DNA of 64,000 nt from Escherichia coli. GTDB taxonomy: Bacteria; Pseudomonadota; Gammaproteobacteria; Enterobacterales; Enterobacteriaceae. The DNA lies in NCBI RefSeq assembly GCF_003334765.1, contig NZ_QOWT01000014.1. One strand, written 5' to 3'. Under the pieces are notes generated by a model that ran no database searches, was not told where the DNA came from, and worked only from the letters and a program-made list of their open reading frames with translations. Made by a program: the position numbers and the translations under genes. This document shows positions 4,383 through 53,688 of this stretch, piece by piece (position 1 is the stretch's first letter; the number at the start of each line of letters is the position of its first letter).

Positions 4383-5417
4383 ATGAGTAACGCGATTACG
4401 ATGGGGATATTTTGGCATTTGATCGGCGCGGCCAGTGCAGCCTGTTTTTACGCTCCGTTCAAAAAAGTAAAAAAATGGTCATGGGAAACCATGTGGTCAG
4501 TCGGTGGGATTGTTTCGTGGATTATTCTGCCGTGGGCCATCAGCGCCCTGTTACTACCGAATTTCTGGGCGTATTACAGCTCGTTTAGTCTCTCTACGCT
4601 ACTGCCTGTTTTTCTGTTCGGCGCTATGTGGGGGATCGGTAATATCAACTACGGCCTGACCATGCGTTATCTCGGCATGTCGATGGGAATTGGCATCGCC
4701 ATTGGCATTACGTTGATTGTCGGTACGCTGATGACGCCAATTATCAACGGCAATTTCGATGTGTTGATTAGCACCGAAGGCGGACGCATGACGTTGCTCG
4801 GCGTTCTGGTGGCGCTGATTGGCGTAGGGATTGTAACTCGCGCCGGGCAGTTGAAAGAGCGCAAGATGGGCATTAAAGCCGAAGAGTTCAATCTGAAAAA
4901 AGGGCTGGTGCTGGCGGTGATGTGCGGCATTTTCTCTGCCGGGATGTCCTTTGCGATGAACGCCGCAAAACCGATGCATGAAGCCGCTGCCGCACTTGGC
5001 GTCGATCCACTGTATGTCGCTCTGCCAAGCTATGTTGTCATCATGGGCGGCGGCGCGATCATTAACCTCGGTTTCTGTTTTATTCGTCTGGCAAAAGTGA
5101 AGGATTTGTCGCTAAAAGCCGACTTCTCGCTGGCAAAATCGCTGATCATTCACAATGTGTTACTCTCGACACTGGGCGGGTTGATGTGGTATCTGCAATT
5201 CTTTTTCTATGCCTGGGGCCACGCCCGCATTCCGGCGCAGTATGACTACATCAGTTGGATGCTGCATATGAGTTTCTATGTATTGTGCGGCGGTATCGTC
5301 GGGCTGGTGCTGAAAGAGTGGAACAATGCAGGACGCCGTCCGGTAACGGTGTTGAGCCTCGGTTGTGTGGTGATTATTGTCGCCGCTAACATCGTCGGCA
5401 TCGGCATGGCGAATTAA
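4383..5417 (+). CDS. rhaT: L-rhamnose-proton symporter
   Basis: 344 aa polytopic membrane protein [28 protein letters not shown]... Confidence 0.95.
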
Positions 5418-6262
5418 TCTTTCTGCAAATTGAGATGACGCCACTGGCTGGGCGTCATCCCGGTTTCCCGGGTAAACACCACCGAAAAATAGTTACTATC
5501 TTCAAAGCCACATTCGGTCGAAATATCACTGATTAACAGGCGGCTATGCTGGAGAAGATATTGCGCATGACACACTCTGACCTGTCGCAGATATTGATTG
5601 ATGGTCATTCCAGTCTGCTGGCGAAATTGCTGACGCAAAACGCGCTCACTGCACGATGCCTCATCACAAAATTTATCCAGCGCAAAGGGACTTTTCAGGC
5701 TAGCCGCCAGCCGGGTAATCAGCTTATCCAGCAACGTTTCGCTGGATGTTGGCGGCAACGAATCACTGGTGTAACGATGGCGATTCAGCAACATCACCAA
5801 CTGCCCGAACAGCAACTCAGCCATTTCGTTAGCAAACGGCACATGCTGACTACTTTCATGCTCAAGCTGACCGATAACCTGCCGCGCCTGCGCCATCCCC
5901 ATGCTACCTAAGCGCCAGTGTGGTTGCCCTGCGCTGGCGTTAAATCCCGGAATCGCCCCCTGCCAGTCAAGATTCAGCTTCAGACGCTCCGGGCAATAAA
6001 TAATATTCTGCAAAACCAGATCGTTAACGGAAGCGTAGGAGTGTTTATCGTCAGCATGAATGTAAAAGAGATCGCCACGGGTAATGCGATAAGGGCGATC
6101 GTTGAGTACATGCAGGCCATTACCGCGCCAGACAATCACCAGCTCACAAAAATCATGTGTATGTTCAGCAAAGACATCTTGCGGATAACGGTCAGCCACA
6201 GCGACTGCCTGCTGGTCGCTGGCAAAAAAATCATCTTTGAGAAGTTTTAACTGATGCGCCAC
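5414..6262 (-). CDS. rhaR: AraC-family activator RhaR (282-aa form; the in-frame Met at 6352 would give a 312-aa form)
   Basis: Track ORF 5414..6436 runs 100 nt into rhaS and is over-extended; C-terminal AraC HTH region recognised; start chosen at GTG 6260-6262 (…[13 protein letters not shown]) from memory of the corrected RhaR N-terminus. Confidence 0.82.
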
Positions 6263-49445: not shown

Positions 49446-50855
49446 ATGCAACGAGGGATAGTCTGGGTAGTCGATGACGATAGTTCCATCCGTTGGGTGC
49501 TTGAACGTGCGCTCGCTGGGGCAGGTTTAACCTGTACGACGTTTGAGAACGGCGCAGAAGTGCTGGAGGCGCTGGCGAGCAAAACGCCGGATGTGCTGCT
49601 TTCAGATATCCGTATGCCGGGAATGGACGGGCTGGCGCTGCTCAAGCAGATTAAACAGCGCCATCCAATGCTTCCGGTCATCATTATGACCGCACATTCC
49701 GATCTGGATGCTGCCGTCAGCGCCTATCAACAAGGGGCGTTTGATTATCTGCCCAAACCGTTTGATATCGACGAAGCAGTGGCGCTGGTTGAGCGCGCTA
49801 TCAGTCATTACCAGGAACAGCAGCAGCCGCGTAATGTTCAGCTTAACGGCCCAACGACCGATATCATCGGCGAAGCGCCAGCCATGCAGGACGTGTTCCG
49901 TATTATCGGTCGGCTTTCGCGTTCTTCTATTAGCGTGCTGATTAACGGCGAATCCGGCACCGGTAAAGAACTGGTCGCTCATGCCCTGCATCGCCACAGT
50001 CCGCGCGCCAAAGCGCCGTTTATCGCGCTGAATATGGCAGCTATCCCAAAAGATTTGATCGAATCAGAACTGTTTGGCCACGAGAAAGGCGCGTTTACTG
50101 GCGCGAATACCATTCGTCAGGGGCGTTTTGAACAGGCCGATGGCGGTACATTATTCCTCGACGAAATTGGTGATATGCCGCTGGATGTGCAGACGCGTTT
50201 GCTGCGCGTGCTGGCAGACGGTCAGTTTTACCGCGTTGGCGGCTATGCGCCGGTGAAAGTGGATGTGCGGATTATCGCTGCCACTCACCAGAATCTCGAA
50301 CAGCGAGTGCAGGAAGGTAAGTTCCGTGAGGATCTGTTCCACCGCCTGAACGTTATCCGCGTTCATCTGCCGCCGCTGCGCGAACGTCGGGAAGATATTC
50401 CCCGTCTGGCGCGCCATTTTTTACAGGTTGCCGCGCGCGAACTGGGCGTAGAAGCGAAGTTACTGCATCCGGAAACCGAAGCTGCTCTGACGCGTCTGGC
50501 GTGGCCAGGCAACGTGCGCCAGCTGGAAAACACCTGCCGCTGGCTAACGGTGATGGCCGCCGGGCAGGAAGTGTTGATTCAGGATTTGCCCGGCGAACTG
50601 TTTGAATCAACGGTTGCGGAGAGTACTTCGCAAATGCAACCGGACAGCTGGGCGACGCTTCTTGCGCAGTGGGCAGACAGAGCGCTGCGTTCCGGTCATC
50701 AAAATCTGCTTTCCGAAGCGCAGCCAGAGCTGGAGCGGACGTTACTGACGACCGCGTTGCGACATACGCAGGGGCATAAACAGGAAGCGGCGCGGCTACT
50801 CGGCTGGGGCCGCAACACCCTGACGCGTAAGTTAAAAGAGCTGGGGATGGAGTGA
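49446..50855 (+). CDS. glnG: Sigma-54-dependent response regulator NtrC
   Basis: Track ORF 49386..50855 over-extended; start at ATG 49446 ([23 protein letters not shown]); receiver domain, AAA+ Walker A (GESGTGKE), GAFTGA motif, C-terminal HTH; 469 aa. Confidence 0.93.
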
Positions 50856-50966
50856 TTCACAGCTTGTGTGTAAAGATTGATTATTGAGCGCAAATTGCTG
50901 GTATTTTACGCTTTACTGTTCCGATAAGTTCAGTATGATCTTGCCCGGAAAACGGGGAGAGTCATT

Positions 50967-51077
50967 ATGCTGGAATCAATAATTAATCTGGTATCGAGTG
51001 GCGCAGTTGACAGCCACACACCGCAAACTGCCGTTGCTGCCGTGCTGTGTGCCGCAATGATTGGGCTGTTTAGCTGA
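50967..51077 (+). CDS. yshB: Small protein YshB (36 aa), below the ORF-track size cutoff
   Basis: ATG preceded by GGGGAGAG Shine-Dalgarno; translation MLESIINLVSSGAVDSHTPQTAVAAVLCAAMIGLFS with hydrophobic C-terminal half. Confidence 0.6.
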   Translation: MLESIINLVSSGAVDSHTPQTAVAAVLCAAMIGLFS

Positions 51078-51090
51078 AGCTCGTTGTTTA

Positions 51091-51194
51091 TGCCGGATGC
51101 GGAGAAAGTCGTAGGCCTGATAAGACGCGACCAGCGCCGCATCAGGCATCATGCTCAGATGCCTGATGCGGCGTAAACGCCTTATCCGGCCTAC
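51091..51194. repeat. BIME (three REP copies)
   Basis: tgccggatgcggagaaagtcgtaggcctgataagacgcgaccagcgccgcatcaggca ... gatgcctgatgcggcgtaaacgccttatccggcctac. Confidence 0.88.
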
Positions 51195-51305
51195 AAAAGC
51201 AATAATTTCAACAGGTTTTGTTGCCCAGCGCATCAGGCAATCTTGTTCTCAGCACATTGATGGCGCTTTCGTTTTCTACTTTGTAAACGAAGCGCCATTC
51301 ACTAT

Positions 51306-52679
51306 TTAAATCACCCGAGAGAACTGCTGCATCCGCGCTTTCTGGCGCAGATAGGTATCAAAGCACATGCAAATGTTGCGGATCAGCAAGCGACCTTTCG
51401 CCGTCACCTGTATTCCCTTCTCATCCACATCCACCAGCCCATCTTTTGCTAACGGGGCGAGCAGCTTGAGATCTTCCGCAAAGTAATCAGCGAAGTGCAA
51501 ATCCCACTGTTTCTCAATAGGGGCGTAATCCAGACGGAAGTTGCAGATGAGCGACTTAATCACATCGCGGCGAATACAGTCATCACGCGTTAGCGCAATA
51601 CCACGCCACAGCGCATTGCCTTGTTCATCCACTTGCTGATAGTACTGCTTCAACTCTTTCTGGTTCTGCGCGTAGCAGTCGCCAATCATGCTGATGGCGG
51701 AAACGCCCATCCCCAGCAGATCGGTATCGCCCTGAGTGGTGTAGCCCTGGAAGTTACGATGCAGCACGCCTTCACGCTGGGCCACCGCCAGCTCGTCATC
51801 CGGACGGGCAAAGTGATCCATACCGATAAACTGATAGCCCGATTGCGTCAGGAAGGCGATGGTTTCCTGCAGGATATCGAGTTTTTGCTGCGGACTCGGC
51901 AGGTCAGCATCTTTGATTTTGCGCTGAGCAGCAAAAATGGTCGGCAGATGCGCGTAGTTAAAGACACTCAGACGATCGGGGTTCAGCTCCGCCACACGTT
52001 TCAGGGTAAAGGCGAAACTCTCCGGCGTCTGTTTCGGCAGGCCGTAAATCAGGTCGATGTTGGTGGAGGTAAAACCAATCTCACGCGCATGGTTAAGCAG
52101 TGCAAAGATGAACTCTTCATCCTGCTCGCGGTTAACCAGACGTTGCACTTCTTTGTTGAAGTCCTGCACGCCCATGCTCAGGCGATTAAAGCCTTCGGCG
52201 CGTAAATGATCGAGTACATCCAGTTCGATTTCCCGCGGATCGACTTCGATCGAAATCTCCGCATCGGCATTGAACTGGAAGTTTTCGCGCAGCAGCTTCA
52301 TCAGGCGGCTGATTTGCGCTTTATTCAGATACGTCGGCGTTCCGCCGCCCCAGTGCAATTGGCTGACGTGACGCCCGGCGAACAGCGGTGCACGATGGAC
52401 GATTTCTTGCTCCAGCGCGTCCAGATACTGATCGGCCTTGTGCTGCTGGCGAGTAACAATCTTATTGCAACCGCAGAAGTAACAAAGCTTATGGCAGAAC
52501 GGGATATGTACGTAGAGAGATAATGGACGCTCAGGATAGCGCGCCACGGCTTGTAAAAACGCCTGTTCGCCGAAGTCTTCTGAAAACTCCAGCGCGGTCG
52601 GGTACGAGGTGTATCGTGGCCCGGAATAGTTATATTTCTGGATCAGGGCCAGATCCCAGTCGATTTGCTGTACAGACAT
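51306..52679 (-). CDS. hemN: Oxygen-independent coproporphyrinogen III oxidase (radical SAM)
   Basis: Start at MSVQQIDWDLALIQKYNYSGPRYTSYPTALEF; radical-SAM CxxxCxxC (CHKLCYFCGC); 457 aa. Confidence 0.93.
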   Translation of the reverse strand: MSVQQIDWDLALIQKYNYSGPRYTSYPTALEFSEDFGEQAFLQAVARYPERPLSLYVHIPFCHKLCYFCGCNKIVTRQQHKADQYLDALEQEIVHRAPLFAGRHVSQLHWGGGTPTYLNKAQISRLMKLLRENFQFNADAEISIEVDPREIELDVLDHLRAEGFNRLSMGVQDFNKEVQRLVNREQDEEFIFALLNHAREIGFTSTNIDLIYGLPKQTPESFAFTLKRVAELNPDRLSVFNYAHLPTIFAAQRKIKDADLPSPQQKLDILQETIAFLTQSGYQFIGMDHFARPDDELAVAQREGVLHRNFQGYTTQGDTDLLGMGVSAISMIGDCYAQNQKELKQYYQQVDEQGNALWRGIALTRDDCIRRDVIKSLICNFRLDYAPIEKQWDLHFADYFAEDLKLLAPLAKDGLVDVDEKGIQVTAKGRLLIRNICMCFDTYLRQKARMQQFSRVI

Positions 52680-52867: not shown

Positions 52868-53377
52868 TTAGTTGCCCCGCAGCAGACGCATCATGTCTTC
52901 TTGCTTCTCGTCTTCTTCCTCTTCTTCGTCATCGTCATAAGAGAGGCCGAGTTTCTGCATCAACTCATCAATACGATCCAGTTTAGCATCCACCCAGGAT
53001 TGCTCTTCGGCACTCAGGGTTTCGCCTGCTTCCAGACGTTCCAGCAGCGCATCCAGACGCTCATCCGTTTCCAGTAATTCCAACTCCGCCTGCGGTGAAA
53101 GCATAGGTTTCTCACTCTTCGGTTTGTGCTGTTTGGTGACTTTTTCAGTCACGCCCAATGGAATAGGGGTTTTACTGCCAATACGTGGATCTTTTGGTGC
53201 GTTCTGGCCTTTGCTGCCTGACGTGGTGTTTCCGCCCGCTGCGCGGCTGCCCGGCGCATGACCACGACGTTTTTTCTGACGCTTGCGATCACGAGCTTCC
53301 TGATCCAGCTCCTCGCGTGTTTTTCGACGCGCTTTTGCATGACCTTTGCTGCGTGAGTTTGAAGATGATGGTTTCAT
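52868..53377 (-). CDS. yihI: Der GTPase-activating protein YihI
   Basis: Track ORF 52868..53440; start at [24 protein letters not shown]...; very basic N-terminal half, polyacidic C-terminal tail ([14 protein letters not shown]); 169 aa. Confidence 0.88.
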
Positions 53378-53444
53378 AATGGTTCGTCTTTTAGCCGTTT
53401 TATTCAGTATAGATTTGCGGCGGAATCTAACAGAAAGCAAGCAA

Positions 53445-53480: not shown

Positions 53481-53688
53481 CCTGACTCATAACCCTTAAC
53501 GGGTCTTACAATCCTTGCAGGCCGCCAACACACCCTGTTTTTCCTTTAGCCGGAACAATCCGTGTTGATTCCATTTCCGTTTAATTACGTCTCCGGACGT
53601 TTGTCTTCCTGACAATCCTCTGTCTTCGCCTCCTGGCGCTCCTGACCCTCATCCTGAGTCATTGTTCCTGTTAGCGTCCTCGCTCTAT
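53446..53688 (-). ncRNA. csrC: CsrC small RNA (CsrA-sequestering)
   Basis: Minus-strand sequence beginning ATAGAGCGAGGACGCTAACAGGAACAATGACTCAGGATGAGGGTCAGGAGCGCCAGGAGG... carries about 14 GGA motifs, mostly in (C)AGGA context, and ends at the terminator; lies in the yihI-engB gap. Confidence 0.8.

Follow-up and report, generated by a model that had tools for sequence, protein, structure and literature searches.

yshB of Escherichia coli, a conserved 36-codon gene between glnG and hemN for a small predicted inner-membrane protein

Introduction

The yshB gene of Escherichia coli was reportedly discovered by Hemm et al. in 2008. It is already a known gene, annotated in every RefSeq E. coli genome, represented by a curated family model and studied experimentally. 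The native protein has been seen by top-down mass spectrometry (PMC12529367) and its abundance is predicted to exceed 11,000 copies per stationary-phase cell (PMC7549839; PMC10502375). In one study, C-terminally His-tagged YshB was undetectable after expression from a plasmid (PMC7549839). Four assays, in vivo and in vitro, identify YshB as a class I RseP substrate; this protease cleaved it in vivo with either of two N-terminal tags, and also when the enzyme was chromosomally encoded or purified (PMC10470546). All of these assays used N-terminally tagged YshB, and the authors warn that tags may change the topology or orientation of a protein (PMC10470546). The Salmonella homologue (Bomjan 2019, J Bacteriol 201:e00314-19) is described, in the accounts given of that work by later papers, as promoting intracellular replication and virulence (PMC10470546, PMC9731577).

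Here the yshB locus is analyzed in a 64,000-nucleotide stretch of E. coli DNA (contig NZ_QOWT01000014.1, RefSeq assembly GCF_003334765.1), referred to as the window, to whose first letter all positions are numbered. A reader working without tools had proposed, from the letters of the window, that the gap between glnG and hemN contains a translated 36-codon gene, yshB, with a strong Shine-Dalgarno sequence (SD), a hydrophobic C-terminal half that could form one membrane-associated helix, and a BIME directly after it. The analysis described below indicates that yshB is very probably a monocistronic gene with its own promoter, the product of which is a 36-residue inner-membrane protein processed by RseP.

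Results

Locus and identity of the reading frame

The reading frame and its two neighbours are placed as follows.

49446–50855, plus strand: glnG (NR(I)), from the RefSeq annotation of the identical W3110 segment
50967–51077, plus strand: yshB, a coding sequence of 36 codons and a TGA stop, for the small inner-membrane protein YshB
51306–52679, minus strand: hemN, from the RefSeq annotation of the identical W3110 segment; convergent to yshB

The ATG occupies positions 50967–50969 and the TGA positions 51075–51077, and the computed translation, MLESIINLVSSGAVDSHTPQTAVAAVLCAAMIGLFS, is the 36-residue peptide of the original prediction. The glnG–hemN gap is 450 nt long in the window, and the yshB ATG lies 111 nt past the glnG stop codon. 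The 551 bases surrounding yshB are 100% identical to those of E. coli K-12 W3110, i.e. the window is K-12-type DNA at this locus. Every one of 5426 complete E. coli genomes contains a match to this 551-base region, and in each of them yshB with its leader is single-copy at an identity of at least 95%. Among the matches listed in this population survey, every row carries the yshB annotation.

RefSeq names the ORF yshB, "YshB family small membrane protein" (WP_000893994.1). The NCBIfam equivalog model NF033841 (small_YshB) matches it with 72.1 bits, relative to a curated cut-off of 34 bits, and residues 1–36 align with profile positions 1–40 of 40. The coordinates, the peptide and the gene name that had been proposed all agree with RefSeq and with this model. 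Profile searches of Pfam, PHROGs and the PDB with YshB returned nothing meaningful, hence neither a remote family nor a solved structure. A search of 1.84 billion representative proteins yielded just 15 matches, most of them mis-called longer or shorter ORFs, a sign that this library under-calls small proteins. The ORF at 50967–51077 is a real, conserved, translated and already catalogued gene.

Beyond hemN, RefSeq annotates yihI (Der GTPase-activating protein) on the minus strand at window positions 52868–53440 (positions 5069–5578 of locus L001). The interval between yihI and yihA contains a short "hypothetical protein" pseudogene, frameshifted and with an internal stop, also on the minus strand at approximately 53496–53662 (positions 5697–5863 of L001).

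Coding constraint across Enterobacterales

Orthologous loci were retrieved with the C-terminal 197 amino acids of GlnG, independently of yshB itself, which gave 80 loci with one genome per species; yshB was then located in these GlnG-anchored loci by tblastn and ORF extraction. An intact ATG-to-stop ORF of 35–41 amino acids is present ~ 110 nt past the glnG stop codon in 35 Enterobacterales species. The carriers belong to Escherichia, Phytobacter, Citrobacter, Enterobacter, Kluyvera, Siccibacter, Superficieibacter, Mangrovibacter, Shimwellia and Pluralibacter, and further to some Pantoea and Erwinia, Mixta, Serratia, Acerihabitans, Pectobacterium, Hafnia, Edwardsiella and Budvicia. Every difference in length between orthologues is a whole number of codons. 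The mean pairwise differences at codon positions 1, 2 and 3 are 0.33, 0.15 and 0.57, respectively, pN is smaller than pS in 630 of 630 pairs, and the median dN/dS is 0.21 over the 386 unsaturated pairs. The check proposed with the original prediction, conservation of the frame across enterobacteria, thus came out in its favor, with the frame intact and under purifying selection in 35 Enterobacterales loci and no disruption in relatives.

Three residues of YshB are invariant (M1, A24 and C28) and six more are at least 90% conserved (S4, P19, Q20, A22, A25 and A29). The family core, H-(T/S)-P-Q-T-A-x-A-A-V-L-C-A, reads HTPQTAVAAVLCA in the window and spans residues 17–29. The 36-residue form of Escherichia, Citrobacter and Enterobacter is without 4–5 linker residues of the 40–41-residue form found in most genera, and YshB appears to be an ancient Enterobacterales protein with an ancestral length of ~ 40 residues.

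The other reading frames of the locus are mostly interrupted, and the one antisense frame free of stops in many segments (26 of 36) lacks a conserved start. Two minus-strand ORFs of 70 and 85 amino acids (50930–51142 and 50976–51233) were considered and rejected, because both begin within the strain-variable BIME, and because the plus frame is the one that the codon-position pattern fits.

Presence and absence of yshB

The gene is missing from 23 other Enterobacterales loci, and 21 of the 23 have a clean glnG–hemN gap of only 33–149 nt (L007, L008, L014, L020, L024, L026, L028, L032, L035, L037, L040–L042, L044, L045, L048, L050, L051, L053, L056 and L059). The median gap where yshB is present is 283 nt. 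The 21 loci come from Pseudocitrobacter, Pseudescherichia, Cedecea, Yersinia, Rahnella, Tatumella, Rosenbergiella and some Pantoea and Erwinia. In Erwinia psidii (L038, 3094–3511) the glnG–hemN gap measures 414 nt, and a YshB-like ORF was not found in it. The scatter of these absences across families suggests repeated clean deletions at the glnG–hemN locus. As judged from this distribution, yshB is probably dispensable on an evolutionary scale, with clean losses in many Enterobacterales lineages.

In six loci (L016, L036, L046, L052, L057 and L058) hemN is either absent within 2.5 kb or lies 0.8–2.2 kb away, and in all six yshB is still found ~ 110 nt past glnG. Because this position is kept without an adjacent hemN, yshB is linked to the glnLG side of the gap.

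Promoter and Shine-Dalgarno sequence

A consensus scan and the alignment of the orthologous loci place two expression signals ahead of the ATG.

50912–50939, plus strand: yshB promoter, with the −35 hexamer TTTACT at 50912–50917, a 16-nt spacer and the −10 hexamer TATGAT at 50934–50939
50954–50961, plus strand: Shine-Dalgarno sequence GGGGAGAG, best duplex with the 16S anti-SD −8.1 kcal/mol

From Escherichia to Budvicia, the 36-row alignment shows conservation of at least 90% for TTTAC and for GTATGAT, with a fixed spacing between them; the form shared by the orthologues is a −35 of TTTAC(T/A), 16-nt spacing and a −10 of (G)TATGAT. A dedicated putative promoter is therewith conserved across the whole order. 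From its position, transcription would start near 50946 and produce a leader of ~ 21 nt. The original prediction had placed the Shine-Dalgarno sequence 7 nt upstream of the ATG, a distance that holds for the GGAG core (50956–50959) and not for the full 8-mer, which ends 5 nt before the ATG. A GGAG, GGGAG or GGAGG sequence precedes the ATG by 5–9 nt in every orthologue.

The palindrome upstream of the promoter

One further element separates the end of glnALG from the promoter.

50888–50911, plus strand: palindromic block GCGCAAATTGCTGGTATTTTACGC, abutting the yshB −35 at 50912 and conserved in Enterobacteriaceae

The conserved alignment of the block reads GCGCAA-ATTGCT-GCTATTTTGCGC. The Phytobacter, Citrobacter and Enterobacter versions are predicted to form a hairpin with a 9-bp stem, after which comes TTTACTGTT; the energies are −11 to −14 kcal/mol and the z scores −2.1 to −3.1. 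In the window, an A at position 50908 breaks the stem, and the fold reaches merely −4.5 kcal/mol with a z score of 0.23. Of 5426 E. coli genomes, 2348 have exactly the allele of the window over 50870–50945. The hairpin is probably the intrinsic terminator of glnALG, overlapping the yshB −35 in other Enterobacteriaceae and degenerate in the window strain. For this hairpin, as for the one at 51260–51298, the structure comes from folding and the terminator role is an interpretation of it.

The BIME and the terminal hairpin

The region between the yshB stop codon and hemN contains two structured elements.

51090–51198, unstranded: BIME of three REP units, two full and one degenerate, that alternate in orientation; inserted past the yshB stop and ahead of the terminal hairpin
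51260–51298, unstranded: terminal hairpin ATGGCGCTTTCGTTT...AAACGAAGCGCCAT, strong, in the predicted fold of the putative transcript

Searched with the head consensus GCC(G/T)GATGCG(A/G)CG, the cluster shows REP heads at 51092–51104 (plus, one mismatch), 51135–51147 (minus) and 51161–51173 (plus), and a perfect 16-nt inverted repeat joins 51135–51150 with 51158–51173. At least two REP units, alternating orientation and inverted-repeat arms, the properties that define a BIME, are all present. The head motif occurs 16 times in the window, where 0.54 copies are expected. The REP-derived Rfam family naRNA4 (RF02564) matches 51114–51191 with 75.2 bits, relative to a gathering score of 59.5. The BIME begins 14 nt past the stop codon, in agreement with the original prediction of a BIME directly after yshB. 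Strains of E. coli differ in the length of the BIME, and many genomes align as two pieces with 85% coverage; E. coli ATCC 11303 (L082) has a yshB–hemN gap shorter by 39 nt and an identical YshB. The BIME is missing from most of the other yshB-carrying genera.

An isolated REP-head fragment, CGCATCAGGCA, is located at 51229–51239, between the BIME and the terminal hairpin. It is a perfect complement of 51160–51170 and probably what is left of an additional REP unit.

Genera that lack REPs have an equivalent GC-rich hairpin, accompanied by an A-run and a T-run, 28–40 nt past the yshB stop codon and shared with convergent hemN; Escherichia has the BIME inserted ahead of its hairpin. The hairpin at 51260–51298 is the probable shared bidirectional terminator of the convergent yshB and hemN genes. 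A simple terminator scan of 50700–51400 returned no site; it passed over the 51260–51298 hairpin because this is without a run of five T.

The YshB protein and the membrane

YshB has a GRAVY of 1.12. Its only ionizable residues are E3, D15 and H17, with no basic residues and no charged residue after H17. The most hydrophobic stretch, residues 21–35, has a Kyte-Doolittle mean of 2.37, which bears out the hydrophobic C-terminal half of the original prediction. AlphaFold2, run with a 35-sequence alignment, predicts helices at residues 2–12 and 19–35, joined by a low-confidence linker, with a mean pLDDT of 72. The C-terminal hydrophobic helix is ~ 17 residues long, short for a span of the bilayer. 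A packing interface of the small-xxx-small type on a single face of the helix was considered and rejected, as conservation extends all around it (moment 0.087). Either the helix core is buried on every side or some other constraint acts on it.

RseP is an intramembrane S2P protease that generally cuts single-span proteins of N-in/C-out orientation, and this preference suggests the same orientation for YshB, the most likely topology of which is N-in/C-out. The original proposal, that the ORF is translated into a small protein and that a single C-terminal helix associates with the membrane, is in accord with RefSeq and NCBIfam, with the AlphaFold2 model, with the top-down mass spectrometry (PMC12529367) and with the RseP cleavage (PMC10470546).

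Alternative explanations

Length by itself is no evidence for a gene at this locus, because 91% of dinucleotide shuffles of the 450-nt gap hold an ATG ORF of at least 36 amino acids. The real gap holds five such ORFs, and a Shine-Dalgarno sequence of −8 kcal/mol or better precedes yshB alone, a combination that arises in 1.8% of the shuffles. An explanation of yshB as a chance ORF in a non-coding spacer, with the conserved DNA being a regulatory or RNA element such as the glnALG 3′ UTR or terminator region, can draw on the frequency of such ORFs and on the antisense frame −2, which is likewise stop-free in 26 of 36 orthologous segments. However, the antisense ORFs of the window begin within the strain-variable BIME, the substitutions are protein-like in their distribution (codon position 3 above 1 above 2) and in the pN and pS of all pairs, indels comprise solely whole codons, the ATG, the stop and the Shine-Dalgarno sequence are all kept, and Rfam has no match over the ORF. 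The substitution pattern, together with the detection of the native peptide by mass spectrometry (PMC12529367), excludes a chance ORF, the probability of which we regard as negligible. It is also very improbable that yshB acts as a regulatory leader or uORF, or as the last cistron of the nitrogen-regulated glnALG operon, such that its translation matters and its product does not. The distance of only 111 nt from glnG, the weakened candidate glnALG terminator of the window strain, which makes read-through conceivable, and the retention of yshB beside glnG where hemN is not adjacent are all compatible with this explanation. Nonetheless, an attenuator acts on a co-oriented downstream structural gene, and hemN, which comes next, is read from the other strand, with a bidirectional terminator-like hairpin in between in relatives. 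As hemN is convergent, nothing downstream is available for attenuation and a leader peptide is excluded. In addition, the amino acids of YshB are constrained (dN/dS 0.21, invariant C28 and A24), a property that a pure sensor of translation does not need, yshB's own promoter is conserved, and yshB is not induced on nitrogen limitation (PMC9731577).

The small size and hydrophobicity of YshB, and its cleavage by RseP in the same screen as HokB, HokC, HokD and HokE (PMC10470546), raise the question of whether it is the toxin of a type I toxin–antitoxin-like module, i.e. a membrane-damaging peptide like Hok, Ldr, Ibs and TisB. A type I toxin is accompanied by a cognate antisense or overlapping sRNA and by a leader that occludes the Shine-Dalgarno sequence. 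At yshB, Rfam detects no antitoxin sRNA or other RNA family over the gene on either strand, and the REP-derived family is the only sRNA family within 3 kb on both strands. Type I toxin mRNAs have long fold-back leaders, whereas the predicted yshB leader of ~ 21 nt is unstructured and exposes a strong Shine-Dalgarno sequence. As a strictly single-copy, syntenic gene, yshB is neither mobile nor duplicated; its product has no basic residues, and a high native abundance of >11,000 copies is predicted for it (PMC7549839). The RseP study discusses toxicity for the Hok proteins and not for YshB (PMC10470546). A toxin function is accordingly considered very unlikely.

Discussion

The favored explanation remains a monocistronic small-protein gene. 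In the corresponding model, a sigma-70-type promoter (TTTACT-16-TATGAT) that abuts the end of glnALG would drive transcription of yshB, and the strong Shine-Dalgarno sequence in the ~ 21-nt leader would direct the start of translation. Expression may be constitutive or linked to stationary phase. The REP/BIME and the terminal hairpin would form the 3′ end of the yshB mRNA and probably stabilize it. The product would comprise an N-terminal amphipathic helix (residues 2–12), a Gly/Ser/Ala linker and a C-terminal helix (P19–F35) that carries the family core. The latter helix is expected to anchor YshB in the cytoplasmic membrane, with N-in/C-out as the most likely orientation, and the protein would be turned over there by the S2P protease RseP. 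By analogy with MgrB, CydX and Blr, we hypothesize that YshB may use its invariant Ala/Cys-rich helix to bind, and modulate, a larger membrane protein. The existence of the gene, the coding constraint, the conservation of the signals and the prediction of the helices are observations of this analysis; the topology, the ends of the transcript and a modulator mode of action are what we infer from them.

A variant of this model differs in two respects. The helix, with its invariant membrane-embedded Cys28 and a core conserved on all sides, would be fully buried in a homo-oligomer or specific membrane complex, or would ligate a cofactor, and would not serve as a generic lipid-facing anchor; in addition, with the yshB promoter overlapping the glnALG terminator and yshB traveling with glnG and not with hemN, expression of yshB would be coupled to read-through from the nitrogen operon in strains with a broken terminator stem, K-12 among them. 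We consider this combination rather unlikely.

The additions made here to a gene already known are modest. They consist of the conservation of the promoter, the repeated clean losses and the shorter linker of the 36-residue Escherichia form relative to the 40-residue form. The locus also serves as a positive control, in that a tool-less reader recovered a genuine 36-codon gene from its Shine-Dalgarno sequence, hydrophobic tail and context. The comparison provides targets for mutagenesis in the invariant C28 and A24, the HxPQ motif and the conserved promoter, and it brings out the repeated clean losses as well.

In comparison with described systems, the cluster at 51090–51198 is a REP/BIME element in that it fits the REP consensus three times and exceeds the Rfam gathering threshold; it differs in kind from the gene itself, being a strain-variable neighbor of yshB and not part of the protein. 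With MgrB–PhoQ, CydX–cytochrome bd and Blr–divisome, YshB shares the size class and a single predicted transmembrane helix, and MgrB, CydX and Blr all occur in the same RseP substrate screen as YshB (PMC10470546). YshB has no sequence relationship to these proteins in the Pfam, PHROGs and PDB searches, and it is without the basic flanking residues that many proteins of this type have. Salmonella enterica has an orthologous YshB, encoded at the matching locus past glnG (ntrC) (PMC9731577); the difference lies in the phenotype, which, as far as the accounts of the Salmonella work go, belongs to an intracellular pathogen and has no known equivalent in E. coli K-12. The closest described system is yshB of E. 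coli K-12 (NF033841, WP_000893994.1). The window agrees with the YshB family in its full-length score above the cut-off, its position directly downstream of glnG and the core motif within the C-terminal hydrophobic helix, and it carries the same gene, with the same sequence and the same glnG–hemN position, as the K-12 reference allele, from which it shows no difference.
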